This document shows, in pieces, positions 15,346-64,000 of a stretch of 64,000 nucleotides of DNA. The notes under the pieces were generated by a model. It worked only from the letters and a program-made list of their open reading frames with translations. It did no database searches and was not told the origin of the DNA. How positions within the stretch are numbered: the first letter of the stretch is position 1; every line of letters begins with the position of its first letter. Made by a program: the position numbers and the translations under genes. This DNA comes from Narcine bancroftii (Eukaryota): contig NC_091471.1 in the NCBI RefSeq assembly GCF_036971445.1, forward strand, positions 296,608,001 to 296,672,000. The letters are read 5' to 3'.

Positions 15346-15632
15346 AAGGAAATCATGGATATTTTTTTCTTTTCTTTCTAATATATTTTTATTGATTTGA
15401 AAGAGAAATATTTAGTTGTATATTTAACAAAAATAATCATCAATAGTACTTTAAAATACAGAATATGGGTCAATAGCAAATTATATAATACAATATAGAC
15501 AGTAAACGTGTATAAAAGAAGTTCATTTGGAGGAACTTCGATTCACATTCTATTATTGGAGTAAATTTATGATGACTAAATAATCTCTTCTATGTATAGA
15601 GAAAAAACGAAATTAAAACAGAATAAACACAG

Positions 15633-16089
15633 CATCGAGTCCACGCTGCTGAAGATCCAGCTGCGCTGGGTGGGTCACGTCTCCAGAATGGAGGACCATC
15701 GCCTTCCCAAGATCGTGTTATATGGCGAGCTCTCCACTGGCCACCGTGACAGAGGTGCACCAAAGAAAATGTACAATGACTGCCTAAAGAAATCTCTTGG
15801 TGCCTGCCACATTGACCACCGCCAGGGGGCTGATCTCGCCTCAAACCGTGCATCTTGGCGCCTCACCGTTCGGCGGGCAGCAACCTCCTTTGAAGAAGAC
15901 CGTAGAGCCCACCTCACTGACAAAAGGCAAAGGAGGAAAAACACAACACCCAACCAACCAATTTTCCCCTGCAACCGTGTCTGCCTGTCCCGCATCGGAC
16001 TTGTCAGCCACAATCGAGCCTGCAGCTGACGTGGACTTTTACCCCCTCCATAAATCTTCGTCCGCGAAGCCAAGCCAAAGAAAGAAAAG
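15633..16089 (+). mobile_element. RTE-clade LINE 3' end, 5'-truncated, young
   Basis: Open frame QLRWVGHVSRMEDHRLPKIVLYGELSTGHRDRGAPKK...SRIGLVSH; AAGCC/AAAG tail; TSD AAACACAG at 15625-15632 and 16090-16097. Confidence 0.85.
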
Positions 16090-28131: not shown

Positions 28132-28431
28132 CGCCTTCTCCAAGTGCGAGCGAGCCTGATCCGTGTTCTTGGTGTGGTGGTACAGAACGCTGCCGAGTTG
28201 CAGGTGGGTGCGGGCCTCGATGCGCTGCGACGGCTTGAACTGGAAGATGGCCTGCAGACAGTGCACGCAGAGCTTGATCTTGGGCGGACTGGCCGTGCGG
28301 AAGTTCTCGGCGAAGCCCAGCAAGGCCAGGTACCAGGCGTCCGTGTACTGAGACGGCTGCTGAGGAGGTTGGGGCTGCGGCTGCGCCTGGGGTTGTTGCT
28401 GCTGAGGGCCGCTAGCGCCAACCGCCGCCAT
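28132..28431 (-). CDS. MAU2: MAU2 coding exon 1 (100 codons)
   Basis: ATG in AAGATGGCG context. MAAVG...[68 protein letters not shown] matches the MAU2 N-terminus. Donor GTGAGC at 28131. CpG-rich. Confidence 0.97.
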
Positions 28432-28530
28432 CTTACCCGCATCCGCGACAAACATCGCGAGAAGTTGGACCCGGCCCGAGAGCTGGGGGTGCGGCCTGGG
28501 GAAGCCGTGACGTCATGAGGAAGCGGTGGA
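28420..28530 (-). promoter_or_regulatory. MAU2 CpG-island promoter/5'UTR motifs
   Basis: YY1-type AAGATGGCGGC over the start codon; TCTCGCGATG (BANP/CGCG-like) near 28453-28462; full CRE TGACGTCA at 28508-28515. Confidence 0.6.
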
Positions 28531-29619
28531 GTGGGGAGCAGTCTGTTGTGGGCACGTTGGCTGCTGCTGCAGAGACGGGGGCGAGAAGACCAGGATCGTT
28601 GGAGCTGTGTGCAACGGATTAAATAGTTTGAAGGTGTGCAAAATGAAATTTGCACCTTGGCCGAAATATGAGAACGTTCTCCTTTGGTGCTCAGGGAGAG
28701 CTGGGGTTCCACGTTCAAGTTTATTGTCATCTGATTGTGCAAGTCCAACCCGACAAAACAGCTTCGGTGTACAAAAATGCAGATACACATCCAGACATAA
28801 TACATACCGACAAACGAAGCATGCAGTTAAAAACAAACAATGCTCAATGTACTTTTTGTAGCATCCCTTGATGAAGGACTGAAGCCCGAAACGTTGGTAA
28901 TGTAAATGTTAGAATCTCGGAGGGTTTGTTTGAGCAGTTCATTCAGTGGTTCAGAAGTCTTGCTGTCTGCGAGAAGAAGCTGTTTCTCAGCTCAGTTTCT
29001 CGTCCAAACATAATGAAGGCAGCAAGCAAGGAAGACCTCGGAATGTATTGTAAGCAAGAGTAAAATCACATGCGGAATGCAATGTAGAATGTTGCCCCCT
29101 TTATTTAAGGAAGGATATTACAGTAATTGTCTTAAAGGTGCAGCCTCAACACCTTCGTTCCTGGAGAAGGGAGCTGTTATACAAGGCTTAAACGATAGGA
29201 AGTCAACGAATGAAAGCTGTTCTCCTTAAGAGTGATAAAATTCTGAGGTTGTTTCCAAGAAGCTGAGAACTGGGAAGGAGGGGCTGACTGTCGGAACACG
29301 GGGAAGGTCACTTTGAAATTCTCTATCTGGGCAGGGGTGGTCAACCTTTTAATTCATAAATACAGAACATTTCGGTCCACGAGTCCGTACCGGCGGTGTA
29401 GGTTAATTAGGCGGACGCCAAATCATATAACTGTACTTAATATTTTGGCAAATAAAATCAGAACAACCAGCTTTAATGAGTGGTGAAGCAGTCCCAAGGG
29501 GTTCATATATCTACTCCTGTTTATTTCCTAATCTGACTGAAGGAATGACATGATAGGTATTCTCTGTCGTCACAGATTTTGATGGAGGGGACACTGATTC
29601 AAACTGATATGTAAAAACT

Positions 29620-30420
29620 CTCTGGAGAACCAACAGATATTTCAACAAGTAAGATAGTAGAAAAGTACAGAAGTGCATTATATAGAGAGAGCAGTTGGTA
29701 CTGAGAGAAAACAACAATTTAGCGGTTTATTCAGGAGTCTAATTACAGTGTGATTATATTTAGTGGTTGCATGATCTCACACTTGAGAATCTACTTCCTG
29801 ACAAGATGGGGTTGGAGAGAGTGTGGTGCCCTGGGATGAGTGTTTAATACATTTGCTGCTTTACCAAGGCGGCAGGAGTTTGATGGAAGGGAAGGGATAT
29901 GTGTGATGGTCTGAGCCATGTTCACGATCCTCTTGTAACCTTAATGAAGGATTCAAGCCCGAAACGTTGCTGAAATATCTTTATCTTTGCTACATAAAGT
30001 ATACTGTTACACCTGCTGAGTTTCTCCAGCATTGTGTTTTTACTTCACATTCCCCTGCAGTTTCTTGTGGTCTTGGGCGGAGCAGTTGCCGTCCAACGTA
30101 GTGATGCACACTGACAGGATACTTTCAATGGTGCATTAGTAGAACTTAACGGATGCAGGTGACATGCGAAATTTTCTCAGGCTTCAGCGGAAAGAGAGGA
30201 CAGGTGCACTTTTTTGTGCATTGCATCGACGTGGTTGGACCAGGACAGGTCACTGGAGATGTTTACCCCAAGGAACTTAAAGCTGTCTACTCTCCCCTCC
30301 TCAGTAACATTGATGCAGAGGTTCAATCATTCTCTAGAAATTTATAACCGGGTCTTGCTGAAATTGAGGGAGAGGCTATTGTCCTTGTACAAAGCGACAA
30401 GTTATTCCATCTCCCTTCAC
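29620..30420 (-). mobile_element. Rex1/Babar-type LINE fragment between MAU2 and NDUFA13, with nested hammerhead-bearing element (~29935-30048)
   Basis: Similar to the other Rex copies (caggacaggtcactggagatgtttaccccaaggaactt). Confidence 0.65.
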
Positions 30421-30729
30421 AGAGTTAAAGCAGGATTTCAAAATGAAATTGGACTGACACTTCACTGAAGATACCGTTCACAGCGATGGATTTTTGTACA
30501 TATTGTATATATTGTTATTGATATGGTTCACGGTGAAGTAATAAATAAAAAATTATAGAAGGGACCAATGATTGTTCCACTTGAATTTTTTTTACACTCA
30601 ACGTAATGTCACACAAAGAGCAATTATTTGTTTATTCACCAAAACAGTAGGATTGTCAAAGAAACTAATTCCAAATAAATGACAATGAACCCATGAAGTG
30701 AAATGAAGTTTAGCCCAACTCCGAGATGC

Positions 30730-30836
30730 AGTTCATGCCAATCACCTGATTGACGGTCCGGAGGCAATCGATCAGCTTAGAGAGGCGGGACTTCCGCTCT
30801 GCCAAGCTTGGCCGGAAGTAGTATTCAACCGAGAAA
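30730..30836 (+). promoter_or_regulatory. NDUFA13 proximal promoter
   Basis: CCAAT 30738-30742; GC-box-like GAGGCGGGAC; two inverted ETS/GABP sites, ACTTCCG 30790-30796 and CCGGAAGT 30812-30819, typical of nuclear OXPHOS gene promoters. Confidence 0.65.
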
Positions 30837-30930
30837 ATGGTGCATGTCAAGGTGAAGCAGGACCTACCTCCTCCGGGTGGCTACGGTCCGGTGGATTATA
30901 AGCGGAACATTCCGCGCAGGGGGCCCTCAG
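30837..30930 (+). CDS. NDUFA13: NDUFA13 (GRIM-19) exon 1
   Basis: [31 protein letters not shown] is the diagnostic NDUFA13 N-terminus; 94 nt, donor gtagga. Confidence 0.96.
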
Positions 30931-30949
30931 GTAGGACGGGGGAGGGTGT

Positions 30950-31855
30950 TGTCTGGAAGTCGGGAGCTCTGGGAGGGGAAGACTGGGGAACTGTTGAAGG
31001 GGAGTCGGGAGTTCGGGGGGAGTCTGGAGCTGGGGGGAGCAGAGAAACCAGCAGTTCGGGGGGAGTCTGGAGCTGGGGGGAGCAGAGGAACCAGCAGTTC
31101 GGGGGGGGGGGAGGTGTTGGGGAAGCCTGGAGCTCGGGAGGGGGAGCTTGGAGCTGGTGGTGGGGGGGGTGTTGTTGGGGAAGTCTGGAACTCGGGGGGG
31201 GGGGGAAGCCTGCAGCTCGGGGAGAGGGGGGAAGCCTGCAGCTCGGGGAGAGGGGGGGGAAAGCCTGCAGCTCGGGGAGAGGGGGGAAAGCCTGCAACTT
31301 GGGGAGGGTTGGTGGGGGGGAAGCCTGGAGCTCCGGGAGGGGTGGTGTTGGTGGTGGGGGGGGGGAGCCTGGAGCTCCGGGAGGGGTGGTGGTGGCGGGG
31401 GGAGGAGCCTGCAGCTCGGGGAGAGGGGGGTGTTGGGGAAGCCTGGAGCTCCGGGAGGGTTGGTGGGGGGGGGGAAGCCTGGAGCTCCGGGAGGGTTGGT
31501 GGGGGGGTGGGGAAAGCCTGGAGCTCCGGGAGGGGTGGTGGGGGGGGGGAAGCCTGGAGCTCCGGGAGGGGTGGTGGTGGCGGGGGGAGGAGCCTGCAGC
31601 TCGGGGAGAGGTGGGTGTTGGGGAAGCCTGGAGCTCCAGGAGGGGTGGTGGGGGGGTGGGAGCCTGGAGCTCGGGGAGGGGTGGTGGGGCGGGAGAGCTT
31701 GGAGCTGGGGGGGGTGTGTTTTTGGGGAAGCCTGGAGCTCGAGGGGGGTGGTGGTGTTGGGGAAGCCTTGAACTTGGGGGGGGGGTTGATGTTGGGGAAG
31801 CCTGGAGCTGGGGGGGGGGGGATGTTGGGGGAAGCCTAGAGCTTGGGGGGTTGGG
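30950..31855 (+). repeat. G-rich minisatellite (~31-nt unit) at the start of NDUFA13 intron 1
   Basis: Repeated ggggaagcctggagctc(c)gggagggg(t)ggtgg and aagcctgcagctcggggagagggg variants. Confidence 0.9.
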
Positions 31856-31865
31856 CACCTCCTGA

Positions 31866-32151
31866 TTCCACTTTCAGGTGGCCAAAATACTCCAATGTAA
31901 AGCCGCATCATATTCTACCCCTACGTGGCTGTCGGTTGGCTACAAAGTGGAGAACCCAGCCAGGAGGAGCACTTACTTAACCCTCTTCCCGTTGGTATGA
32001 TCTCCGGCTCTGAGAATCTCTCGTTGCACCTGAAAGCAGTAGTAGGACTACGGCCACAGTCCACAGGAGCTGGTGTTCGCTCGAATGCCGGCACGTTCAG
32101 GTGGCAGAAAATGCCGGTGCATTATCTGCATCTGAGCACCTGAAAGCGGAT
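31866..32151. mobile_element. Putative MITE (Harbinger-like)
   Basis: Terminal inverted repeats tccactttcaggtg / cacctgaaagcgga; flanks tga / taa. Confidence 0.45.
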
Positions 32152-32156
32152 TAAAG

Positions 32157-32821
32157 TAGGGCTTTCCAAACGTTTTAGTTCATAGAACCCTTTTGGGAGC
32201 ACTTGGAAATCACAGATCCCCAATTGTCAATTACAGTTTAAAAGATCTGATTATTATGATCTGATTATTATGATTGCCTTATTATACACAAGTATAATAA
32301 GGAAATAAATAAACTCACCATTCTCTAATTTACATTTAATGGATGAATGGAATTGCTTCTTGTCCTCACAGATCTTAATGTTGGCCACAATGTTAGATGT
32401 ATCCTTATGTCATGGCACCTCAGTACTTCAGATGAATGATCCTGTCTTCTAGTTTGTTTTTTAATCCAACGATCCATGATTCTTAATACAGTAAGGCAAG
32501 CATGGAATATCTTTCAGTTTAAATTTTAAAATAAGGCCAACCTCACACCAGAAGAAATCAGAGCCTTATTTGTGGTAAATGATGCACAGGTCGGTTGTCT
32601 GCGCTGCTCATTACGCCATTTTATTTTCTTAGGTCTGGTGGAGGCAAATGTTTGCAGCCATTGCATAAACACAGTGATTTAGAGGTTTTAAAAAAAAAAG
32701 TAATTTAAAGAAAAACCGGTTGAATGGTAGATAGTATTACTACCTGCCATTTCTTCCACAGAACCCCTATGGTTTTCCATGGAACTCCTGGGTTCCACGG
32801 AACCCAGTTTGGGAAACGTTG
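32157..32821 (-). mobile_element. hAT/Charlie-like internally deleted DNA transposon
   Basis: TIRs tagggctttccaaac / gtttgggaaacgttg; degenerate 8-bp TSD gattaaag / ttctaaag; MDRWIK transposase-start remnant on the minus strand near 32460-32478. Confidence 0.6.
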
Positions 32822-34862
32822 TTCTAAAGCATTCCCCCAAGTAGAGGAAAGCTAAGACTTGGAATACACTCGGGAAATATTTCCTTTTTGCTTATATATT
32901 GAAGAAGGGATCAGGCCTGAAATGTCAGTAATGCACTATATCTTTACCTCCGATTGACACTGAGTTCCTAGTGTGTTTTTACTGCAATCACAGCACCTGC
33001 CATCTTCCATGTTTCACTTCTCACCCATGCCAGCCAGGTTGCTAACCTGAACTAATCCCATTGGCCTGCTCATGGCCAATGCTTGTTATCATGCCTGTCT
33101 CTGCATGTCCCAGAAACGTACTTGTGAATCTTTTTGACACCATGTTTATTTAAGCATTTCCTTCCTGCATTAAGGGGACCAGAATTTCACACCTTTTTCC
33201 AGTTGAAACCTCACCAACGTCCTGTAGAACTGGAACTTGATGTCTCCACTCTCGTTGTCGGTGCCCAGTCTGAATGACAAACCCCTTCATCACCCTTTTT
33301 CCTGTGTCATCCCTTTGAGGGAACTCTGGTCTCACAGCTCTGGATCTCTGTTCTTCAAGACTTTCCAGAGCTCTGCAATTTTCTGTGCAAGTACTGGCCT
33401 GTAGGGTGTACAAGAAGACCATCCCTAAAGATGCCCTGAGGCAGAGAAGACTGTGGATTGAGTGCTGGAACATGGCATTTATAGGGGTGGATACCACAGG
33501 TCAGCATGAATGTGGTGGGCAGAGCAGTCTGCTTCAAAGCTGCATGACTCCGCCACATTGATTTAGAAATTTATCATCATTCTAAGTTTCAATTCTGGTG
33601 CTCCCTTCCCAAGAGTACAATCAGAGCCACCTGTTCCAACCAGTGACATTTGGCTCTGTGTGATTATAGAAAATAACACTGCAACATTCCCACAGTTTTT
33701 GCTCTTGAATCTTAGCTGTAAGGCATCCAAGTTGTCCTGAGATGACATCATGCCATCTGATTTGTGAACTGTTCTCGCCAGCATCGCTCAGATGGTGAAT
33801 GTGGGGCATTCTGGAAATATTTAGAATTGTTAGTTTTGTGCCTGGGAGTGATGATTTTCTGTGATGACTGCACATAGAGTACTCATTCCCCCCCCCCCCC
33901 CCAACAGTTTTTGATTAGCATTGTTTCTGTTGCTGTAGACTCCCAAACATCTCTCCAACAAGGGTCCTGCTCCACTCACATGACCAAGAATCTCAAGCCG
34001 CCTCCAGTAGCTTTACCAAACCAAATTTGACATTGAACCACATACGATGAGACTGGAGGGTTTAAGGCTTGTCATCATAGTGAATTTATGAAAGGAATCC
34101 CAGATTTGAGATCAAAGAATCCAGATCACTCAGGTCATGTCTGCCACTAGTGAGGTGATATAAATGAGAGGAAGATGCTTTAGGTTGAGAGTTTAGTTCT
34201 GAGTTCTCCAGAGAGTCATAAGGCTAGAAGAGATTACAGAATGAGGGAGAGGTTGGGACAGGGAGGTATTTGAAATCCAGGGTGATTTTCTTTTAAATCA
34301 AGGCGTTTCCTAAAAACAAACACATTAGATCAGTGAGCCAAGGGTTTTGGGAGCTTGGGGTGAATGTAGTTTACAGAGGATGCATGTTACCATGTTTGAA
34401 GGACAAGCAGAAATGAGTTCTTCCAAATATTCAAGTTTTTTTTGTGTTTCAATCTGCATGACCTGTTGCATGTGTTTTACTGGGCAAATCATCCAGAATC
34501 CAGGAATTCATCAAGAGCATGAGAGTTCACATCTCATGACAGCTGTTTGAGTAAATATGTATGGTTTTAAACAGCGGGGATCAGAAATAATATTTTCAAA
34601 ACTATCAGAAAGTTGGACAGGCAGTACTGAATGTCTCTTTTGACACATTGGAACTGCGTGCCTGTCTCCCATCCTGCACCAAGTCTGAAGAAGCCTCAGG
34701 GCCTCAGTTTTACCACCACTCTCAGGACAGTAACCCAGGGAAATGCCCAAATCTGAAGCAGCGCACTGATTTAAGGGGAGGAAATGGTTTGATTCACCCT
34801 TATGCTGACCTTATAATGTATTATTCGTGAGGTGCTGACACCATATTTGTTTGTATTTGTAG

Positions 34863-34941
34863 GTTACAGCATGTTTGGGATTGGAATTGGGATTTTAATC
34901 TTTGGCTACTGGAGGCTCTTCAAGTGGAACAGAGAACGACG
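34863..34941 (+). CDS. NDUFA13: NDUFA13 exon 2 (GYSMFGIGIGILIFGYWRLFKWNRERR; TM helix)
   Basis: 79 nt, ttgtag/gtatgt boundaries, phases consistent. Confidence 0.96.
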
Positions 34942-35753
34942 GTATGTCTCCTCCCAAACCACCCCTCTAAAACTCTATTTACCTTATTCACGTCCCGCAG
35001 TTCAGTTAAAGACAGTTGCAGGTTTCATCTTTACACATTAAATCTTGCCACACCCCTGTTTTCAAGAGTGCTTTGTGGAAGGAATGGCTTGCTCCTGAAG
35101 CATCGATGATTAGGGAATGCCTAGGGGGGAGGGGGGCGGGGTTGATATTTTGGTCTTTGCAGACTAGCCACTGTTTTGGATATTTCAGAAGAGAAAGATT
35201 TGAAGGTGAAATGGTTTTACAGGTTAGTGGGATTACAATTATTAGCACATTCAAAGAGATTATTTTTGCATGACTAAGAGCTGGAAAACTCCTCTGAATC
35301 TACACCTTTCTCCGGAAATTCATTCTTTCTGGAAATGTGTTGTTGGACTGTCCATTGGAGCAGAGGTGAGAAGTACCTTCAGTCAGAGGGTGGTGAATCT
35401 CTGGAATTCATTGCCATTGGTTGTGGAGACCAAGTAATTGGGTATATTTTAAGGGTGACTGAAGGTTATGGGGACAAGGTAGGAAAATGAGAGGAAAAAT
35501 ACATCATCCATGATTTGAATGGCAGAGCTGACTCAATGGGCTGAATTCCGCTCCTGTCTCCTGACCATTCTTTGAGCTCCATCTTCAGTCACCGTCATTG
35601 TGATGTGAAACATCAAAGTTTGTGATTGTAGTAAAAACATGGAAATGCTGGAGGAACTTGGCAGGTCTCGCAGCATCCATAGGAGGTAAAGATATATTCC
35701 AGACATTTTGGACTCGGGCCTTTCCTCAAGGTATGAGTGGAAAAAACTTCACT

Positions 35754-38159
35754 GGAGGGAGTCACGTGATGGAGTAGTGGCTGGTCGTGTGGAACCAGCC
35801 CTCTTCAGAGAAAAGAAAAAAAAGTTTGAAAAAACAGAGCTCAATAAACATAAAATACTGGAAGAGAAAGATAAAGTTACAGAGAAGAGACAAAAGATGG
35901 CTCCCAAAAGAGAAAAAGTAAGAATAACAGAGAAAAGGGAAGAAGGAAAATCACTGGAGAAGAAAGAAGAAGGCCTTACCTGCACGTCGGAGCAGAGAGC
36001 CACCGTGGAGAGGAGTGGCCAAACTCTGATGTTGGAAAGTCCCCAGAGGAGCTGGGGAAAGTCCTCCCGACCAGCAGACTTCAAAAATGGCTCTCAGAGC
36101 CAAGAAGAGATGCACAACTGCGCAAGTAAAAGAAAAGGTTAATGCCGGCAGGAGGGGGACTCGGCTGAGGAGTGGCCAGCTGAGAGATGCCCAGTATCGG
36201 GGCGTTCGGCTGGGGGAAGCAAACAAAAAAGAAGAGTGGTGAGAAAGAGAATGAAGGGTGGGGTGGATGAGCTGTAACGGGGCAACCAGCAGGGGGACGA
36301 CTGGCAGCGGGTCGACCCGCAGGGGGAGGCCCGGCAGCGGGTCGACCCGCAGGGGGAGGCCCGGCAGCGGGTCGACCCGCAGGGGGAGGCCCGGCAGCGG
36401 GTCGACCCGCAGGGGGAGGCCGGCAGCGGGTCGACCCGCAGGGGGAGGCCCGGCAAGGATACAGAAGCAACTCACCAGATAAGGATGAAGATACACGGAT
36501 ACAGAGAAGAAGACGACACAGACATAGATGCAGACACAGAAGAAGAGGAGGAAGAAGACCAAGAATTTCAAAGGAAAGAAGAAGGTAAAATAGAAGGACA
36601 AAATTTAGATAAAGCCATTTTTGAAGAACAAATGGGGTCATTAAAAGAATGGCTATCATTAGAATTTAGTTCAATCAAAAGAAAAATGAAAAGATCTGAA
36701 GACAAAATGCAAAGCTTAGAGTTGGTCATGACTGAAACAAGGAAAAGAGTAGAAAATGAGGAGGAACGAGAAGCTCCTGCAGAAATGGAGATAAATGATT
36801 CAAGAGGGAAGTTGGAAGAGCGAAAAAAAAATAGAAAGACCAGATTTATTGTTACAAAAAATTGACGTATTGGAAAACTACAGTAGGCGAAACAACATAA
36901 AAATATTGGGCCTGAAAGAAGGCAAAGAAGGGTTGGATATGAAGGAATTTATAAAAGGATGGATCCTGAATGTGTTGGGAACGACAGATTCACAAGAAGA
37001 AATAGAAATCGAAAGGGCGCATAGAGCACTAGTACCGAAACCGCTACCACATCAAAAACTGAGATCCATATTGCTAAAACTTCTAAGATATATGACAAGA
37101 GAGAACATACTGGAGCAGGCAAGAAAGAAGGTTAGAGAAGACAGTAAGCTGTTGGAATATAAAGGACAAAACATTTTTTTTCCTGGACATAAGCTTCGAA
37201 CTTTTAAAGAAGAGGAAGGAATTCAACACGGCGAAAACAATCTTATGGAAGAAAGGTTATAACTTTATATTAAGACATCCAGCAATACTCAAAGTATTTA
37301 TTCCTGGGGAACAGAATAGACTGTTTTCGGACCCAAAGAAAGCCCAAGAATTTGCTGAACATTTGAAAGACAGGAGGAGGAGGAGTGACAAGAAGGAAGA
37401 CCGGCAAGAAAATATACAAAAATATGTAAAAATATAAAGTAAAGATAATGTATATTTAAAGATGGATAAGAGAAGAGGGGGCTGGGGTAGGAGAATAATG
37501 GTCACTGCAAAATCGGTTGATGCTGGCGAGTAATTTCGTAAACCGAATGGAAAGGGGAGTTGTGGTTGCCAACAAGGGGCAATCCAAGGAGGGGAGGTTC
37601 ATTTGGGGTTAAAGGGTTATTGCTTATGGGGATTGTTGGGGTATTTCATGTCTTAAGTGCATTGTCATATATTGAGATTAAAAAGGAAAACTTAAAAAAC
37701 AGTAATGGAAAAAAAGGGGATGGAGGTGGTGAAGAGATGGAAAAGAAGTGAATGTAAAGATCCAAGATGGCCACATTGGACTATATGACTATTAACATTA
37801 ATGGAATATATAACCAAGTTTAAGTGTATCCCATTGGAAAAAAAAATCACATATAATTTAAAAGACAAAGTTACAATGTTTGAAAAAACCTGGGAACCAT
37901 ATATGGAACATAACAGAAAGAGCAGGCCTCGGATCACCACCACCTAAAATGATAAGAAGATAAACACGACCAGATTTAATCTGTATAAGTAGATGATACG
38001 TCTTTTTTGTTTGTATTCCTTTTGTATAAAGATATTGTTTTGTTGTATTTTATATGTTCAACATTTACTGTTTTTGGAGGGGGTGGGAAGGGGGAAAAAA
38101 ACAAGAGAAAATGTCACTGTGAATATTTAAAGAGGGATAAATAAAGAATTACAAAAAAA
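35754..38159 (+). mobile_element. L1 with 5'UTR and disrupted ORF1, ORF2 almost entirely deleted
   Basis: 5' end GGAGTCACGTGATGG shared with 62349; ORF1 motifs LENYSRRNNIKILGL and IERAHR; ORF2 start at 37767 joined at about 37823 to the ORF2 C-terminus; 3'UTR and A-tail. Confidence 0.85.
36289..36455 (+). repeat. 30-bp tandem repeat (5 units) containing a perfect 14-bp palindrome
   Basis: Unit cagggggaggcccggcagcgggtcgacccg; GCGGGTCGACCCGC is self-complementary. Confidence 0.95.
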
Positions 38160-39810
38160 GCACTTTACTTATACCGTGAGGAAGGGCTCAGACCAGAAAT
38201 GTCGGTGATGTATATTGACCTCCGATGGATGCTGCGATACAGCCCGAGTTCCTCCAGCATTTTCGTATCAGTGCCCTCTGGTGGAGATCAGAAGGAAAAC
38301 TACTTATTCAAGATTCCTGTAGTCATGTAATAATACAGAACATGTAATATTACACAAAATTTCCTTCTGCTTCCCATAAGGAAGACAGAGTCCCCAGCAT
38401 TATTGCCTGGTATCTTTTTACGGTAAGAGCAAAAGAGAGTCCCTTCAGAATAACTGAGTGTTCCAGCACTCCCACAGCCTCTGCAGCCACATAGTCTCCT
38501 ATCCGATCCATCGGCACACTGAGCTCCAGATCCAAAACTTCCAACACAATGAGAAAAATTCACCCAAGGTCTTTTGGGACCCCCATCTTGCCCTCACCAC
38601 CTTCTCAAATCTTGGTTCCAAAAACTGGTTCACATGCACCAGTCTCCTGCAGCCCGGGCGGGTCCTCCAACCGCAAGTCACCCGTGTGGGTCCCTCAGCC
38701 ACTGAGCCCCTCACTGGCACCGTCCTGTAGGGTCATCTCTGCTTCTCCATGTGGAAGGGGGCACAGAATGTTCTCCCCGTATCTGGTTCCCTGCACCAGT
38801 CCGCTGCTGCCCCTGTGTTTGGTACCCCTTGTGGACTCTGTCGAGCACAGGCATCTTGAGCGCAGACTTTGTGGTTGATGGATTTTACTTTATAACACCT
38901 GTTCGGAGCTGCCATGTGATGTTTGGATCCATGGTGGAGGTCAGAACAAAAACTTGTACAGTCATGATCAGCACAATTTGAATTAAGGGAAGGCCATTTG
39001 GCCCTTTGCAGTCTCCACCCTTCATCAGGATTCACTTCCGGCTCCACTCTGCAGGAGTTTCCTTGGTGTGCTCCTGTTCCTCCCACATTCCACAGGGAAG
39101 TTTGTGAGTTGTGTATGGATGGGGAAAATGAGGAAATGGGCTTGCTCTTTTGGAAGTTGGTGGGCCACACAGACTCCTGGATAATTTTAAGATTTTCCTG
39201 CACTATTCACAACTCTTTGTTCCCTGAATACTCCATAAAACTTTTAAATCAATGACTGAGACGCCACAGTTCTGAGGGAGAGAATTCCGAAGATTAACCA
39301 TTTGTCTCAATCCAAGGTGGCTGAGTTACTCTGACCCCAATTTGAGGCTAGTTTGCTGAAGGAGACAACCATGGTGTTGAGCCTTTGTAAAATTACTCTG
39401 CCCATCTGTGAATATAGGTGTTCATTGCAAGTCTAGCCTTTCGGAAAAGAGAACAAAGTTGTAACTATCCTCCCAAAGTCATCTCACTGGAACCCAACTC
39501 AATCTCAGTAATTTACTGGTGCACTCAATCCCTCTGGTAATGTTGGCCATTTAACTTTTGTTATTGCCATTTGCAACGTTCAGGGGCAAGGATGTGCACA
39601 AGGTCCCTTTAAACATCAACATCTCTCAATCTATGTCTTTTTTAAAACATTCCTTTCCACATGCTACTCACTTGCTCCCCTCTTTGCTCGTAATTGCCTC
39701 GTGTATCATCCTGACCTGCCAGACGCTTGAACCATTACTACATTGACCTTTTATTACAGGCTTACAGTTTCGTGTGATTTTATTTCTTCCCCACCCCCAC
39801 CCCCCCCCAG

Positions 39811-39882
39811 ACGCCTCCAAATTGAAGACCTGGAAGCCCGTATTGCGATGATGCCATTGCTTCAGGCTGAGCAGGACAGGCG
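39811..39882 (+). CDS. NDUFA13: NDUFA13 exon 3 (RLQIEDLEARIAMMPLLQAEQDR)
   Basis: 72 nt, ccccag/gtaagt boundaries. Confidence 0.96.
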
Positions 39883-39939
39883 GTAAGTCAGAGAGGGGTC
39901 TGCTGGAAATAGAATGGAGAAGCAACCTGCCACAAAATA

Positions 39940-40632
39940 CAGGTAGTCCCCAACTTACGACCGTAATGGGGGCCAAAGGATCGGTCATATCTTGGAATGG
40001 ACGCAAGTCAGAATTTCCCCTGCGAGCATGGATTACCAAGATCTTAAAGCTAACTTTTTAAATCCAATGTTGTATTTGATAAACTGTAACAGGAATACAG
40101 GGCATGTAAGAGCCAAAATGTGTGTGTGTACTTTGTTAGTCGGCATCCTGGGGTCGAGAGGCTGGGCATGGCCACCATTTCAACAGTTTTAAAGGACAAT
40201 AAGAAAATACGTGAGGCTATAAAAGGTTCTGCAAGTATGAAGAGCCATCTTGATTCCTGTGCGCATGAGCGGTGGGTTTGCGCATGTGTGAGAGTTAAGC
40301 GCCCTGATGATATTGAATTTGCGCCTTTAACTCTCCGCCCTCATGTGCCAACCGAACTCCAATGCGCGAACCCATCATGTATGCGCCAACCAAAGACTCG
40401 AGCATGCTCACAGAAATCAAGATGGCTCTTCCTACTTGCAGAGCCCTTTATAGCCTCACATATTTTCTCTTTGTCCATTAAAAGGGATAGGTTTTTCCTC
40501 TTGCCATCTTTCTAGCACCCCTACAGAACAGCAACTGTGCTCCAGGCACTATATTGCGCATAAGCATTTTTTAATTTGGTCGTATGTGTGGATGGATGTA
40601 AATTAAGTAGGTTGTAAGTTGGGGTGTGCCTG
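39940..40632 (+). mobile_element. Tigger/pogo-like non-autonomous DNA transposon in NDUFA13 intron 3
   Basis: TA-flanked TIRs caggtagtccccaacttacgacc / ggttgtaagttggggtgtgcctg; HTH remnant ATISTVLKDNKKIREAIKGSASMK. Confidence 0.8.
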
Positions 40633-40857
40633 TAGTGCAAGTTAGTCTGCAGTCATATCTCAAAAGCAACCAAGCCATGTATATAAAGAAGTGTATTTAC
40701 AGAAGTGTAGGATGTAAAAATGTTTAATTCAATAGTTATTCATACACTGCGCACAGGATGTGCAAGGGTCAGAGGGTACCCATGTAAATCCTGCGAGTAG
40801 GCCATTCAGTCCTCAAGCCTTCACTATCATTTATTCAGATCATGGCTTTTTTTTTAG

Positions 40858-40927
40858 GTTTCTACGTTTATTAAGAGAGAACCTTGAGGAGGAGGCAAAG
40901 ATTATGAAGGATGTTCCAGGCTGGAAG
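40858..40927 (+). CDS. NDUFA13: NDUFA13 exon 4 ([23 protein letters not shown])
   Basis: 70 nt, ttttag/gtaaac boundaries. Confidence 0.96.
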
Positions 40928-41747
40928 GTAAACCAGACCCAGATCATGCTTTAGTTTCTCTTTGTAAAAAGAAATCCAGAGGAGTGCAGGTCCATAAACT
41001 CTGGTCAAAACTGACCCTAGTTGCTGCACCTGTCCATTAGCTCTGTGGATATAGTAAGGGGCTGGTGGGTCTCATCTCACCTCCCTCTGCACCCCCCCCC
41101 CCCCCTCACTGCTTGCATCAACAACAGTCCACTGAGGATGGGGAAAGCAGGTTGGGTATATAGGGAAATTTACATGACTTCTGTCCTGGTTCTTGCCCTG
41201 ATTGGGGTTGGAGTGCATTTTGAAGGCAGTACAGCAATTGCACTTCGTCTTTCTGAGAGTGGAATGAAACAGTGAACAGATGCATCGGGGATCACGCACC
41301 CCTCTCAGCTCAGCAGCAGGCAGGCAGAACCTTTGGCCTGTTGTGCCACTCATTTGATAGATGGGAGAAACCAGGGCATTTCTCCATTGAGTAGCCTCGG
41401 CTATAGATGTGAGAACACTCTTGCTTCACAATCACCTCACACTGTCCCCTGTGGAACAGTGTTCCAGATTTTCCCTTTGGTCCAACTCCTGACCCTTTGC
41501 TCAAGGTTCCCTGATCAGGGGAAATGGTTTTGGTATGCTACCCTGGTGCCACATCAATCACAGCAATCAGATACAATCTCTGCTCTGATTTTAATACTTC
41601 AAGCACAGGGTTATTCTGAAGATGTGTTTGTTCAACGCCCCGCCCCACTTCCATAGTGAATTTGGTGAGGTGGGATCTTCACCGATTTTGGAAGGTTGGG
41701 GCTGCTGTTTGATTATTGAAGAGGTTTCACTGCATTTCCCATTGCAG

Positions 41748-41867
41748 GTTGGTGAGAGCGTTTACCACTCCAATCGCTGGATCAGGCCCCCAGTGGAGGA
41801 ATTATTTAACCTTCGACCTCGAGAAGAGTTCCTCAGAGAGAAATATGGCTTCCAGATGTACGTGTGA
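41748..41867 (+). CDS. NDUFA13: NDUFA13 exon 5 (VGESVYHSNRWIRPPVEELFNLRPREEFLREKYGFQMYV*)
   Basis: ttgcag acceptor, TGA at 41865-41867. Spliced CDS totals 435 nt = 144 aa plus stop. Confidence 0.96.
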   Translation, partial: VGESVYHSNRWIRPPVEELFNLRPREEFLREKYGFQMYV

Positions 41868-45974: not shown

Positions 45975-46070
45975 TGTTTGGTCAGGCGTTGCCGAGGCTG
46001 CTCTGAGCTTGGGTCCTGACGCCATCTTGTTTGGGCAGCGGTCAGGGAAGGACGACAACCGACCGGCGGG
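45975..46070 (+). promoter_or_regulatory. UQCR11-like CpG promoter/5'UTR
   Basis: CpG-rich patch with YY1-type CGCCATCTTG at 46020-46029 and a weak X-box-like GTTGCCGAGGCTGC at 45988. Confidence 0.45.
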
Positions 46071-46120
46071 ATGTTGGAGCGACTTATTGGCCGGACTCCG
46101 ATGCAGCTACTCAAAAACTG
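46071..46120 (+). CDS. UQCR11: UQCR11-like (cytochrome b-c1 complex 6.4-kDa subunit) coding exon 1 (MLERLIGRTPMQLLKN-W)
   Basis: ATG in a small CpG island; 50 nt; donor gtgagg at 46121 splits the conserved KNW tryptophan codon. Confidence 0.85.
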
Positions 46121-46227
46121 GTGAGGCCGGGAGCCGGGGTGGGGGTTCGGCGGGGGCAGCGCCGAAGGTCAAGGGTGGAGAGTTGCGGCGCTTCAGGCTC
46201 GGGAGTGAGCAGCGACGGTGGGTCGTC

Positions 46228-46440
46228 AACTCCTCTCCCCTTTCCCATCTCCCGCCTCGCCCCCTTCCCCCTCCACCCCAGCCTCGCCCCCCGCCTCTCC
46301 CCCCCCCCCCCTCTCCCCCCCCCCCCCCCCCTCTCCCCCCCCCCTCTCCCCCCCCGCCTCTCCCCCCCCGCCTCTCGCCCCCGGCCCCGGCCCCCGCCCC
46401 CTCCACCCCCTCCACCCCGGCCTCGCCCCCTTCCCCCGCA
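46228..46440 (+). repeat. C-rich tract in UQCR11-like intron 1
   Basis: Runs of C up to about 18 nt; G-quadruplex potential on the minus strand. Confidence 0.85.
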
Positions 46441-46479
46441 TGACTCTCCCTTCCATCCTCACCCAATTATCAATGATGA

Positions 46480-46790
46480 GAAGCATCGATCATTGGAGAT
46501 GTCCAGAGGTTTTTCCCAGGGTGTGAAATGGCTAATGTAAGGGGAAATTTCTTTAAGGTGCTTGGGAGTAAGAACAGGGGGATGTAAAAGGTAAGTTTTT
46601 CACTCAGAGTGGTGGGTGCATGGAATGTATGGCTGGCAACAGTGGTGGAATGGAATCTTAAGAGATGAATAAATAGGTACATGGCACTGAGATAAATGGA
46701 GGGCTATGCAGTTGAGAAATTCTAGGTAGTTGTTAGAGTAGGTTATTAGGTTTGTGGGCTAAAGGACATGTGTGGTGCAGTAGATTTCTG
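46480..46790 (+). mobile_element. CR1-like LINE 3' fragment
   Basis: cactcagagtggtgggtgcatggaatg block typical of CR1 3' regions. Confidence 0.6.
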
Positions 46791-46933
46791 TATCGAATAA
46801 ACGTTGGGGGAAATATGAATATTGATCTTTATAATCCATCTATAGTAGGAGCAGAATGTATAGTTGGACACTCATTGACAAAGACATGATATTATAAGCA
46901 AGGCTTCTGTATTTGACATAATTTCTTCTCTAG

Positions 46934-47051
46934 GATTCCAACGGTGACCACGTGGGGCATTGTGGCTGGGATAACTGTGATATATGCCACAGACTGGAAG
47001 GTAATAGTTGGTCACATCCCATACATAAAAGGAAAATTCAAGACTGATTGA
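46934..47051 (+). CDS. UQCR11: UQCR11-like coding exon 2 (W-IPTVTTWGIVAGITVIYATDWKVIVGHIPYIKGKFKTD*)
   Basis: ttcttctctag acceptor. Motifs WxPT..TWG, ATDW and PYIxGKFK are characteristic of UQCR11/QCR10. Single hydrophobic helix; 55 aa total. Confidence 0.88.
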
Positions 47052-47622
47052 AGGTCTCAACTGTTTAATGGTATGCCACTAATTTCTCATAATCATGTGT
47101 GTGTGTGATATATTTACCTCAACATATTAGCTTTGACTAAAATGAGAATGTCGCTCTGTCTAATGCGAGGGAAAATGAACTGCTATTATATTTATGGCAT
47201 GAAGCAGAATGGTCAGTTTTTGGTGGTTCAAGTAGCCACTTGTCCTTTCCTGTACCTACACATCACACAGAGCCAAATTGAATTCTACTTTGAATCTGCA
47301 TTTCATTATTTTCTGTGTTGAGGTGTAACATAAAAATCAAATTTTAAGTAGCCTATCTTCAAAGCATCAGGTGATTCTTTCTCCCATTACATTTCCCACT
47401 GCATTTGGATTTTTAGGGGCCTCAAAATTAATTCCTCACAAAAACAAATATATGTAAGAAAGAAAAGCATCGATAGCCTATTGAGTACCTCGCCACTGCT
47501 CCAACATTGTGCATGATTGTGACACAATTCCAAAGACCATTTTCCTGTGCCAACCCTATCTAATTCACTTAGTGTCCAAAAATCCATTAATGTTTGGTTT
47601 TGCACACACTTTAAGAAATAAA

Positions 47623-48064: not shown

Positions 48065-49079
48065 TAAATTAAAATGAAATCATATTCTACAGAGTATTTA
48101 TTAAATTTGCAAAGCTCTGCAATATTAATTACCTACCTCTTCATGATTAATCTTAGTTTGGATATTATTTGGTAGGAATCTGAAGATTGTCAATCTTGGT
48201 ACATGTTCATTAGAATTAAATGGTCAGTCCACTTTGTCTTCTTTCAGTTGACCTTGTTTTGTTAGATGGTTGGTGGATGTGGTTCAAGAAGCAAATTGTC
48301 TGTTTGTTCTCCTTGTCCTTCAGGCTCTCATCAGATCACTTCTAAACCATTTCTCTTTATTTGAGTTCTGTCCTGACTAATTTGTATTTTTTTAAACTTG
48401 CATTTTGTTTGGTGGTTGAAGCCAGGGGGATGTCACTGGAGTCGGTGAGACTAATGATGTGTGGCAGGCTTCATGAAATCAATCTTTTGTCTGTGCGATA
48501 TTCATGAAGCCAAAAAGTCTCGTAAAATATGTGCTGACTCAAAATGTTGATCTGTCTTAGACTAGAGATACCAGTTGTACATTTGATACATTCCTTGAAT
48601 TATTTTGTTTTTTTTTAGGATTTGAGGGAATAATCTGACCAAGTGATTCAACAACACCCACTGAGGCTGTCAAGAATTTTGCCAACTGACATTTCTGGTT
48701 TTGAACATTTAAAGCTGGATGGCAATGAGATCAAACATCTTTTGAGTTAAAAACATTACGTTTGAGGGTGATTTGTGTTAATGTCAAACAAATAGTATCT
48801 ATGGGGGCATCTTCAGCCTGAACTACCCGGTTTATTCGGAACTTGGAGTTTTGCCTCAAAATATACCCTTTCAGCTTCTGAAATAAAATGTGAAATACAG
48901 CATTAAATTGGCAAATGTTGATATTTATAAATTCTTCCAATCTGTACACTCAAGAGCGATCTCACGATAGTAAGTACATTGGATTAATTGGGACTGTAAT
49001 AAAGCAATGTTTATTTGACACATTATACCTTGCGCAGTGGAAAGGAATCATCTACAAGCATTGTAACAGGTTAACTCAA

Positions 49080-50913: not shown

Positions 50914-53555
50914 TTTTTTTAAAAAAAATTTTATTTTTCACACCATAAACCACATTGACCATGATACATACATTTTCCTTTTCAAATATATACAGTGTCA
51001 TTTTTTCTACCCCCTCCCTCCTCCCATCCCACCCTCCCTACCTCCCCCCCCATCCATTTAAAGTACAAAATCTAAGATACATTAAACCAGTCAAACAATG
51101 TTGTCATTCAATAAAAATAAACAAAAAATTCCACTGAGTCAGTTCTTTTCATTTCCTTCTCCTTTCGTTAATTAAGGTAGTGAATGTCCCCGGTAGGTTT
51201 TCTCTATTGTGTTTCATGTAAGGCTCCCATATTTGTTCAAATATTTCAATATTATTTCTTCAACTATATGTTATTTTTTCTAATGGAATACATTTATTCA
51301 TTTCTATATACCATTGTTGTATTTTCAAATTATCTTCCAATTTCCAGGTTGACAATACATTTTTTTGCTACGGCTAGAGCTATCTTAACAAATCTTTTTT
51401 GTGCACCATCCAAATCAATTCCAAATTCTTTGTTTTTTATGTTACTTAGGAGGAAGATATCTGGATTTTTTGGTATATTGTTTTCTGTAATTTTATTTAA
51501 TATTTGGTTTAGATCTTCCCAAAATTTTTCTACTTTCTCACATGTCCAGATTGCATGAATTGTTGTTCCCATTTCTTTTTTACATCGAAAACATCTGTCA
51601 GATACTGTTGGGTCCCATTTATTTAACTTTTGAGGTGTAATGTATAGCCTGTGTATCCAGTTATATTGTATCATACGTAACCTCGTATTTATTGTATTTC
51701 TCATCATTCCAGAACATAATTTCTCCCATGTTTCCTTTTTTATCTTTATATTTAAATCTTGTTCCCATTTTTGTTTAGTTTTACCATTTGTTTCCTCATT
51801 CTCCTTTTCTTGCAGTTTAATGTACATATTTGTTATAAATCTTTTGATTATCATTGTATCTGTAATCACATGTTCAAAGTTACTTAAACTCAGACTGCTT
51901 CCTAATTTGTCCTTCAAGTAGGATCTCAATTGGTAATATGCCAGCCCTGTATCTTGAGTTATATTGTATTTATCTTTCATTTGTTCAAAGGATAATAATC
52001 TATTTCCTGAAAAACAATTTTCTATTCTTTTGATCCCTTTTTTCTCCCATTCTCTAAAGGAAAGGTTATCTATTGTAAAAGGGAGTAACTGATTTTGCAT
52101 CAATATTAGTTTTGGTAATTGGTAATTTGTTTTATTCCTTTGTACATGAATCTTCTTCCAAATATTGAATAGATGATGTAATACTGGAGAACTCCTTCGT
52201 TGTACCAATTTTTCATCCCATTTATATAATGTGTGTTCAGGTATCTTTTCCCCTATTTTATCTAGTTCTAATCTAGTCCAATCTGGCTTTTCCCTTGTTT
52301 GGTAAAAATTTGATAGGTATCTTAATTGTGCGGCTCTATAATAATTTTTAAAGTTTGGCAGTTGTAAGCCTCCTTGTTTATACCATTCTGTTAATTTATC
52401 TAGTGCTATCCTCGGTTTCCCCCCTTTCCATAAAAATTTCCTTATTATTTTCTTTAACTCCTTGAAGAATTTCTCTGTCAAGTGTATTGGCAATGCCAGA
52501 AATAGGTATAATATCCTTGGGAAAATGTTCATTTTAATACAGTTTATCCTTCCTATTAGTATTAATGGTAAATCTTTCCAATGCTCTAAATCGTCCTGTA
52601 ATTTTTTCATTAGTGGATAATAATTGAGTTTATATAGATGGCCAAGATTTTTATTTATTTGTATACCTAGGTATCTTATTGCTTGCATTTGCCATCTGAA
52701 TGGTGATTCCTTCTTAAATTTTGAGAAATCCGCATTATTCATTGGCATTGCTTCACTTTTATTTGCGTTACTCTTGTAACCCGACACTTCTCCATATTCC
52801 TTCAATTTCTTATATAATTCTTTTATTGATAGTTCTGGTTCTGTTAAGTATACTATAACATCATCTGCAAATAAACTGATTTTATATTCCTTGTCTTTTA
52901 TTTTTATCCCTTTTATTTTATTTTCTGTTCTTATCAATTCTGCTAGTGGTTCTATAGCTAACGCGAACAATAAGGGTGATAGTGGGAATCCCTGCCTTGC
53001 TAATCTGCTTAAATTAAATTGCTTTGATATATATCCATTTACTGTCACTTTCGCCAATGGCCCCTTATATAATGCTTTAATCCAATTAATATACTTCTCT
53101 GGTAAACTGAATTTTTGCAATACTTTGAATAAATAATTCCATTCTACTCTGTCAAAGGCCTTCTCTGCGTCTAAAACAACTGCTACTGTTGGCGCTTTAC
53201 TCCCTTCTACTGCATGAATTAAGTTAATAAATTTACAAATATTGTCAGTTGTGCGTCTTTTTTTAATAAATCCAGTTTGGTCTAGATTTACAATTTTAGG
53301 TACATACTCTGCTAATCTGTTTTCTAATAGCTTAGCTATTATCTTATAATCTGTGTTAAGTAATGATATTGGTCTATATGACGCTGGTGCGAGTGGATCT
53401 TTCCCTTGCTTTAGTATTACTGTAATTATTGCTGTTTTACATGAATCTGGTAAGCTTTGTGTTTTATCATTCTGGTTGATTACTTCCATGAGGGGAGGAA
53501 TTAATAAATCTTTAAATGTTTTATAGAATTCTATTGGAAATCCATCCTCTCCTGG
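50914..53555 (-). mobile_element. 5'-truncated young L1 (ORF2 RT to C-terminus) inserted into a CR1 copy
   Basis: 719-aa ORF 51330..53489 with YRPISLLNTDYK, LDAEKAFDRV, RQGFPLSPLLF, LFADD and CFRC..GTTIHAIWTC. Late frameshift near 51350. Poly(A) at 50914+. TSD ATAAAATCTTG (50903-50913) / ATAAAATATTG (53556-53566). Confidence 0.93.
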
Positions 53556-53960
53556 ATAAAATATTGGTTAAAGCACAGTTGGAATATTACACCTGGTTCT
53601 AGACACCACACAATAGGAATGACTCAATTGTATTGGAGCGGGTGCAGAGAAAGTTCACCATGATGCTGTCAGGGTAGAGGATTCTCATGAGTAATGAGAG
53701 TTTAGACAGGCTGACATTTTCTCTGAAGCACAGGAGGCTGAGGGGTGACATGGTGGAAGTGTATGATTATGAGAGGCAATGATAGGCAGATGGAACGAGG
53801 ACATAGACTTAAGGTGAGAAGCTGAATATTTAAAGGGCATCAGAGAGGTCAGTTTCCCACAGGGCGGTTGATGTGTACCTTCCTGCAGAGGAGATGGAAG
53901 AATCAGTACACCGCAATGCTTGAGGCATTTGGATATACACTTTAATTGGTGAATGTTTCC
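53556..53960 (+). mobile_element. CR1-like LINE (continues from 50820-50913)
   Basis: ttggttaaagcacagttggaatatt...ttggagcgggtgcagagaaagttcacc CR1 blocks. Confidence 0.65.
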
Positions 53961-62348: not shown

Positions 62349-63848
62349 GAGGAGTCATGTGATGAGTAGTGGCCGGTCGGGGAACTCCAGCCCTCTCCGG
62401 AAAAGTAAAAAAAAGACAGTGAAAAAACAAAGGCACAAACACAAAAACCAAAATAAAGTGAAAGTAAAGGTGTGGAGAAAATGGCAGCGAAGAAAGAAAA
62501 GCCAAAAGCAACGGGAAGAAGAGAAGAAGAAAAGACGTTGGAAGAAGAAGGTGAAGGCCTTACCTGTACGAGGAGGCCCGCCGTGGAGAGAGAAGCCCGC
62601 TCCCTAAGGCCACTTGAAGCCCCGAACTCGGGACTACAAAAATGGCTCACGGAGCCAAACAAAAGTGCGCAATCGTGCATGCGCAAGACAAATAACACTG
62701 ACGGGAGGGAGGACCAGCTGAGGAGTCGATCTCCACAGCTGAAAGTGACAACCACAACGAAGCAGCAAGAGGAAAACATAGAAAATAACGAGAACAAGAA
62801 AGAAGAGAGTAAAAAGAAATGACCAACCCAGAGGAGGAAGACCAGCATCAAGACACCTCTAGTAAAAATAAGAAGACCAAAAATACCCAACAAAATAAAA
62901 CAAACAAACCAACAAGAAAACCAGAAGAGACAGAGGTAAAGGACACAGATCCTGGAGTGGACTCAGAAGAAGAAGAGGAAGAACACAGAGAAATGAAAGA
63001 TGAAGGGAAGGGCAAGTACATGGATATATTTTTTTTTAAAGAATATATGGAATCAGTAAAAGAATGGCAATCACAAGAATTCAGTGAATTAAAAAGTTCA
63101 GAAGAAAAAGTGAATAGATTAGAGATGATCATGACAGATATAGGAAAAAGAGTGGACAAGGTAGAAGAACGAGAAACAGCCGTAGAAATGGAAGTAGATG
63201 ACTTAAAAAAGAAATTAGAAGAATCTGATAAAAAAGTTAAAGAGACACAAGAGCTGTTAGCTCAGAAGATAGATATAATGGAAAATTATAATAGAAGAAA
63301 CAATATAAAGATAGTGGGCCTTAAGGAAGATGAAGAAGGCAAGAATATGAGAGAATTTAAAAAAGAATGGATCCCCAGGGTCCTAGGAAGGCCAGAATTA
63401 CAGGAAGAAATGGAAATAGAAAGGGCACACAGAACATTAGCTCCTCAACCACAACCACAACAAAAACCAAGATCCATTCTAGTAAAATTCTTAAGATATA
63501 CAACAAGAGAAAATATATTGGAGAAAGCAATGAGGAAAATAAGAGAAGACAAAAAACCACTGGAATACAAAGGTCAAAAATTTTTTTTCTATCCAGATAT
63601 AAGTTTTGAACTCCTGAAGAAGAGGAAGGAGTTTAATACAGCAAAAACGACCCTATGGAAAAAAGGATATAAATTTATGCTAAAGTACCCAGCGGTACTT
63701 AAAATAGTTATTCCAGGGCAGCAAAACAGACTATTCTTGGATCCGGAGGAAGCATGAAAATTTGCAGAACAACTACAAAACAGACAGAGAGATGAAGACA
63801 TGTAACGAGAACAAAAATTACCACAAACCATATGTGTGTATGTAGGTG

Positions 63849-63879
<31 letters not shown>

Positions 63880-64000
63880 ATGTGTGTATGTATATATATA
63901 AAAAAAGAGTATAGGTAAGAACTAAGAAGGGAAAGAAAGGAAGTGACCTTTGTTATATATGAAGATTAAAATCTTTTCTGGGGGGGTTGGGTGGGGAAGA
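62349..64000 (+). mobile_element. L1 5' end with ORF1 (continues beyond the window)
   Basis: ORF 62819..63757: coiled coil, MENYNRRNNIKIVGL, IERAHR, PRSILVKF, FYPDIS. Same 5' terminus as the 35754 element. (TA)n/(TG)n in the spacer at about 63830-63900. Confidence 0.9.

Follow-up and report, generated by a model that had tools for sequence, protein, structure and literature searches.

Does the short two-exon reading frame that follows the NDUFA13 gene in the electric ray Narcine bancroftii encode a hidden, second version of the complex III subunit UQCR11, or is it the gene from which this ray makes the usual subunit? On the forward strand of the window (the whole 64-kb stretch of DNA that was analysed) the frame opens with an ATG at 46071, and the coding part of its first exon (46071..46120, 50 nt, codons 1-17, phase 2) runs up to the donor TG/GTGAGG at 46121. 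A GT...AG intron of 813 nt (46121..46933), with an acceptor AG ending at 46933, separates it from the coding part of the second exon (46934..47051, codons 17-55 plus TGA), which extends over 118 nt to the TGA ending at 47051. The joined frame encodes 55 amino acids with its sole stop at the end; an earlier note on this DNA had given the 50-nt and 118-nt exons, their GT/AG limits, matching phase and 55-residue product with exact coordinates. The same note had held the gene to be hidden and likely missed by automated annotation. This is refuted by an identical, named RefSeq protein from the same species, XP_069784728.1 ('cytochrome b-c1 complex subunit 10 [Narcine bancroftii]', 55 aa), which is 100% identical to the window protein, with zero differences found. 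Its product name does not carry the suffix '-like', and it is annotated as protein-coding. Narcine UQCR11 is an already known and annotated complex III subunit gene.

A search with the Pfam family UCR_6-4kD (PF08997) scored the window protein at 82.8 bits against a cut-off of 24.5, with residues 1-55 aligned to model positions 1-55. The second exon, which encodes the transmembrane segment and the C-terminal tail, scores 57.4 bits with the same family and reaches a best PDB E-value of 4.2e-10 by itself; the whole protein matches PDB chains of 'cytochrome b-c1 complex subunit 10' across residues 1-55 without gaps (best E 1.2e-15). A profile made from 30 UQCR11 rows of vertebrates, run over the whole window in six frames, detected just these two exons (E 9e-22 and, for the first exon on profile columns 1-17, E 1.8e-4) and no second UQCR11-like segment in the 64 kb, the next-best match having an E-value of 0.12. 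The two coding exons are real. Mammalian UQCR11 (PF08997; PDB 1sqq_K, 9cg3_G) is matched over its full length without gaps (E about 1e-15) and has the same single-helix fold, at about 45-49% identity and with the Narcine protein one residue shorter. The match to yeast Qcr10 (PF09796), given as the counterpart of UQCR11 (PMC7827222), is in contrast weak (E 4.3e-4), and its 20.7 bits lie under the cut-off of 27.5, so that the protein does not belong to the yeast-type family.

The build of the protein is also that of the family, with 55 residues, one hydrophobic helix and basic ends (charges +2 and +3). The hydropathy of segment 18-36 is 1.37 (ray range 1.14-1.43) and the N-terminal charge is +2 (ray range +2 to +3). 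An AlphaFold model computed from a 30-row alignment has a mean pLDDT of 83 and contains one long helix (8-35), which may reflect the signal of the family more than the Narcine sequence itself. At E<=0.001 Foldseek returned zero matches for this model, which is no surprise for a helix of 55 residues; its sole match was the bovine subunit 1sqq_K (E 2.5e-3, TM 0.63).

The promoter, the first exon and the start of the intron are covered by a CpG-rich block (46001..46500; GC 0.70, CpG observed/expected 0.63, 35 CpG in 500 nt), one of four such 500-nt bins in the window, and the CpG promoter that had been claimed for this gene is thus borne out. On the forward strand a YY1-type motif, CGCCATNTT (46020..46028), lies 43 nt upstream of the ATG. 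By the consensus that we take to describe this motif the window contains five matches, where chance would give 0.63, and the one at 46020 is likely to be a putative housekeeping-promoter element. At the other end, the rest of the second exon is predicted to be a short 3' UTR on the forward strand (47052..47070), closed 19 nt past the stop by a candidate donor ATG/GTATGC at 47071; on a crude consensus score this donor agrees with 6/9 positions and another candidate at 47097 with 7/9. A non-coding third exon is predicted at 48619..49003 (forward strand), with AATAAA signals at 48882 and 48998 and a candidate acceptor at 48618; out of 215 AGs it is one of the 4 that pass a simple pyrimidine filter. 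Human UQCR11 presumably also has a non-coding third exon, and the crude consensus score suggests such an arrangement in Narcine; alternatively, the second exon may be the terminal one, using the AATAAA at 47617.

How divergent is the protein? In a comparison with 33 other rows, its identity is 62-71% with rays, 56-64% with sharks, 58% with Callorhinchus and 40-55% with bony vertebrates. The alignment of this protein with 29 vertebrate UQCR11 rows is gap-free, and the cartilaginous-fish rows in it are likewise 55 residues long. Identity to the Pongo protein is 49%, against 53-69% for other cartilaginous fishes and 47-93% for the bony rows. This figure, together with the gap-free PDB alignment, agrees with the description in the earlier note of an ungapped match about half identical to human UQCR11. 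The segments GPRY, GAVGAVGLVW and LDWVP, which it had regarded as typical of vertebrates, are all absent from the window protein as it had said. Their value as a yardstick was examined in 144 other rows, comprising 25 from cartilaginous fishes and 119 non-shark rows (the 120 listed of 377 matches minus one shark cluster, 7 of the rows being unnamed). GPRY occurs in 47/119 non-shark and 15/25 cartilaginous-fish rows, and its change to GRTP is truly private to Narcine; GAVGAVGLVW (9/119 and 0/25) and LDWVP (23/119 and 0/25), however, are minority motifs. By these counts the yardstick is mostly mammalian, and other rays and sharks share most of what looks like divergence. Cartilaginous-fish UQCR11 is a sequence type of its own, and the 'typical vertebrate' motifs are largely of the mammalian type.

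The conserved core of the family is present, namely W17-x-P19, W24-G25, T36-D37-W38, P46-Y47 and G50-K-F-K53. Conservation reaches 90% or more of the 144 other rows in 16 columns, and 14 of these are retained, including W17, P19, W24, G25, T36, D37, W38, P46 and Y47; the two lost are Y10 and G28, of which G28A is common to stingrays whereas Y10P is private. Other rays (Hemitrygon, Hypanus, Mobula, Amblyraja/Leucoraja, Rhinoraja and Pristis) also have 55 residues, align gap-free at 62-71% identity and share with Narcine the ray/shark-type C-terminal half. Compared with them, the Narcine protein has the tract R8-T9-P10-M11, encoded by the first exon, in place of P-R-Y/H-x, as well as I26, I30 and H44, and among the 32 columns that do not vary across 7 ray rows it differs at 6. 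Each of R8, T9 and P10 occurs in 0/144 other rows, and Y10 in 139/144, so that a near-invariant tyrosine has become a proline next to the loss of P8 and R9. As a natural variant at such a site, Tyr10-to-Pro would mean that any contact made there is dispensable or compensated. Callorhinchus has a threonine at position 10 of its UQCR11.

The clustering of the change in four adjacent codons within a CpG island raises the question of whether the R-T-P-M tract could result from misassembly of GC-rich DNA, the true protein being a more ordinary ray UQCR11. The RefSeq protein is no independent check on this point because it was probably derived from the same assembly. A compensated frameshift was considered and rejected, as neither shifted frame restores P-R-Y/H. 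Moreover, the sequence flanking these codons is not homopolymeric, and a single nucleotide step separates each residue of the tract from its counterpart in the P-R-H-R of one Hemitrygon copy; we therefore regard an error of this kind as very improbable. The tract would rather have arisen by ordinary point changes along a branch of about 200 million years that is without close sampled relatives; the divergence of the electric-ray lineage from skates and sawfish is reported to date back about 210 million years (10.1101/2025.02.26.637739).

A long branch and the replacement of P8, R9 and the near-invariant Y10 might also be taken as the mark of a decaying, non-functional copy. Yet the frame is open, the splice sites are intact and the CpG island is in place; the 14 of 16 highly conserved columns that are kept set the gene apart from the '-like' copies of Hypanus, which are damaged there; charge and hydropathy are unchanged; and the gene is annotated as protein-coding. 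Such a pseudogene is accordingly a reading to which we attach hardly any probability. An insertion of a processed copy is discounted more directly, as the gene is not a retrocopy given its intron and CpG island: an 813-nt GT-AG intron, an open frame and the island are found where a processed pseudogene would be expected to differ.

The gene tree that the earlier note had proposed places the Narcine protein with the UQCR11 of other rays in two maximum-likelihood versions. In the tree of 34 rows it falls among rays with support 86/68 and beside stingrays and devil rays with 88/83; in the tree of 42 rows the corresponding values are 96/79 and 94/84. In the latter analysis the Narcine protein and the other rays come out as one clade in 94% of 200 bootstrap trees; this clade carries no star, and the bony-vertebrate part of the tree is poorly resolved. 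AU tests reject neither a placement outside the other cartilaginous fishes (p 0.324) nor one outside all jawed vertebrates (p 0.177), because 55 columns hold little signal. The terminal branch is long in both trees (0.34-0.37), and 7 residues are found in Narcine only when compared with the 33 other rows (other rays 0-3, Callorhinchus 4), a count that is inflated because no other electric ray is among the rows. In Tajima relative-rate tests the Narcine protein has more changes in 35/36 comparisons with other rays, with one tie. A mild acceleration is plausible on this pattern, and we do not claim it as established because just 1/36 tests is significant at p<0.05 and the comparisons draw on overlapping data and are non-independent. 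Together, these results make it probable that the gene is the ray's ordinary UQCR11 orthologue, mildly divergent. The earlier note had left the choice between a fast-evolving orthologue and a retained paralogue, and it is the former that fits the trees; an ancient paralogue or a tissue-specific isoform finds no support in them or in the annotated Narcine proteins listed.

The location of the gene bears on the same question. Its upstream neighbour is NDUFA13 (GRIM-19; 30837..41867, forward strand), with five coding exons encoding 144 aa; Pfam GRIM-19 is matched by 4/5 of these, and 3 reach or exceed the cut-off. From its stop to the UQCR11 ATG there are 4203 nt on the same strand, confirming the earlier claim that the two genes adjoin, at a distance of 4.2 kb. 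Subunits of complex I and complex III are encoded here 4.2 kb apart in the same orientation. Beyond NDUFA13, on the reverse strand, lies the first coding exon of the cohesin loader MAU2 (28132..28431, limits set by eye; Pfam Cohesin_load E 8e-19). In humans, MAU2 and NDUFA13 are, as we take it, both on 19p13.11 with GATAD2A between them, so that the local order of this pair has presumably already changed. With UQCR11, all three genes are on human 19p (a placement partly assumed here), and we therefore view them as one old linkage group. We recognised no MBD3 or TCF3 exon among the 22 long frames scanned in the window, and found no report of a UQCR11-NDUFA13 linkage in the literature. Human UQCR11 is reported to lie between MBD3 and TCF3 on 19p13.3 (PMC4882821), whereas Narcine UQCR11 follows MAU2 and NDUFA13. 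This position would best be read as a gene-order difference from mammals and not as a sign of duplication. Contigs of 33-57 Mb carry many of the UQCR11 entries from sharks and rays, in contrast to the 376 Mb contig of the Narcine gene, which is in line with the extensive chromosome fusion reported for Narcine bancroftii (2N=28; 10.1101/2025.02.26.637739). UniRef labels the UQCR11 of Callorhinchus 'Methyl-CpG binding domain protein 3a'. This mislabel may be a trace of UQCR11/MBD3 linkage in some species; we set this hint aside, as the label sits on a cDNA and does not record gene order.

Neighbours unlike the human MBD3/TCF3 (as reported in PMC4882821), the long branch and the 7 residues found in 0/33 other rows could alternatively be explained if Narcine had two working copies, of which the present gene would be a relocated, faster-evolving duplicate, perhaps restricted to a tissue such as the electric organ, and a more conservative copy would have stayed at the ancestral locus. 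There is some precedent for this. Teleosts are reported to retain two uqcr11 copies with differing expression (10.1101/2024.07.30.605748; PMC4398389), and this pair, uqcr11.1/.2 (UQCR11-A/-B), illustrates that vertebrates can keep two copies expressed differently; it is, however, attributed to the teleost genome duplication, whereas no second Narcine copy is found among the annotated proteins listed. Extra UQCR11 copies also occur in other cartilaginous fishes, and the AU tests leave room for an older origin. Against these points, both best trees nest the Narcine protein among rays, and any duplication would therefore be recent and not ancient; the CpG island and YY1-type motif would look like a housekeeping promoter; and the private-residue count and the rate excess are both weakened by the sampling and non-independence noted above. 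A profile of cartilaginous-fish UQCR11 run against annotated proteins gave 32 matches, in which the one Narcine row is the window protein and a second Narcine protein is lacking. With the bony-vertebrate profile no Narcine row appeared among the best 120 of 377 matches listed (which include one shark cluster), nor did a second Narcine entry appear among the listed members of related protein clusters. Going by annotated proteins, UQCR11 is likely to be single-copy in Narcine, and we consider the existence of two working copies improbable.

Additional copies are no rarity among cartilaginous fishes, extra '-like' UQCR11 entries being found in Hypanus, Hemitrygon, Scyliorhinus and Heptranchias; we found nothing pertinent in the literature on a ray or shark UQCR11 paralogue. 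Stingrays have two UQCR11 types, with one Hemitrygon copy grouping with Hypanus and the other with Mobula (99/95 in the 42-row tree), and Hypanus has several '-like' copies with damage at conserved positions. These types may derive from a duplication in the stingray/devil-ray line or from a set of retrocopies. In Scyliorhinus canicula, and likewise in S. torazame, several UQCR11-like entries that are almost identical to one another lie on different large contigs.

What would the ordinary orthologue do in the ray? As the membrane segment, the conserved tryptophan and the motifs TDW and PY..GKFK are intact, we infer the same role in complex III as elsewhere. Narcine UQCR11 would be a small single-pass accessory subunit of this respiratory complex, imported into the mitochondrial inner membrane, if it behaves like the family, and incorporated there into complex III. 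Its N-terminal arm, the site of the private tract, presumably faces the matrix. UQCR11 has been described as a late-assembling accessory subunit that enters complex III with the Rieske protein (PMC6286155), and yeast Qcr10 as needed to stabilise the Rieske protein (PMC7827222); in respirasomes, UQCR11 is described on the matrix side, close to COX7A of complex IV (PMC6138618). By analogy with these family members, the Narcine protein would join complex III late, together with the Rieske protein, would help to stabilise the complex, and would lie near COX7A of complex IV in supercomplexes. It is conceivable that electric rays rebuilt the N-terminal arm, in a sole or a relocated second copy, with changed contacts to a core subunit or COX7A and changed supercomplex formation, but we give this proposal little credence. 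On the best reading this is a housekeeping complex III subunit whose annotation is correct, with little further significance; the one remaining curiosity, Tyr10-to-Pro, would gain weight only if electric rays turned out to have another UQCR11 copy or an altered pattern of supercomplexes.

Several minor features of the window deserve mention. MAU2 and NDUFA13 are arranged head-to-head, with starts about 2.4 kb apart (28132-30837), and an ETS/GABPA-type motif, CCGGAAGT, according to the consensus that we assume for it, is present just upstream of the NDUFA13 ATG. A further CpG-rich bin at 15501-16000 (observed/expected 0.76) falls inside the expected span of MAU2. Low-complexity G-rich/C-rich tandem tracts are found right behind the first exon of both NDUFA13 (30950-31850) and UQCR11 (46230-46440). 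From UQCR11 downstream to 64000 only LINE-type remains were recognised. These include, on the reverse strand at 51330-53567, a 745-aa open frame of a 5'-truncated LINE-type reverse transcriptase (RVT_1 E 1e-40, zf-RVT). Two related lysine/glutamate-rich stretches on the forward strand, at about 35900-37900 and at 62400-64000, gave no Pfam match and by eye resemble the first open frame of LINEs; the former is situated inside intron 2 of NDUFA13 and has a short tandem repeat near 36290-36460.
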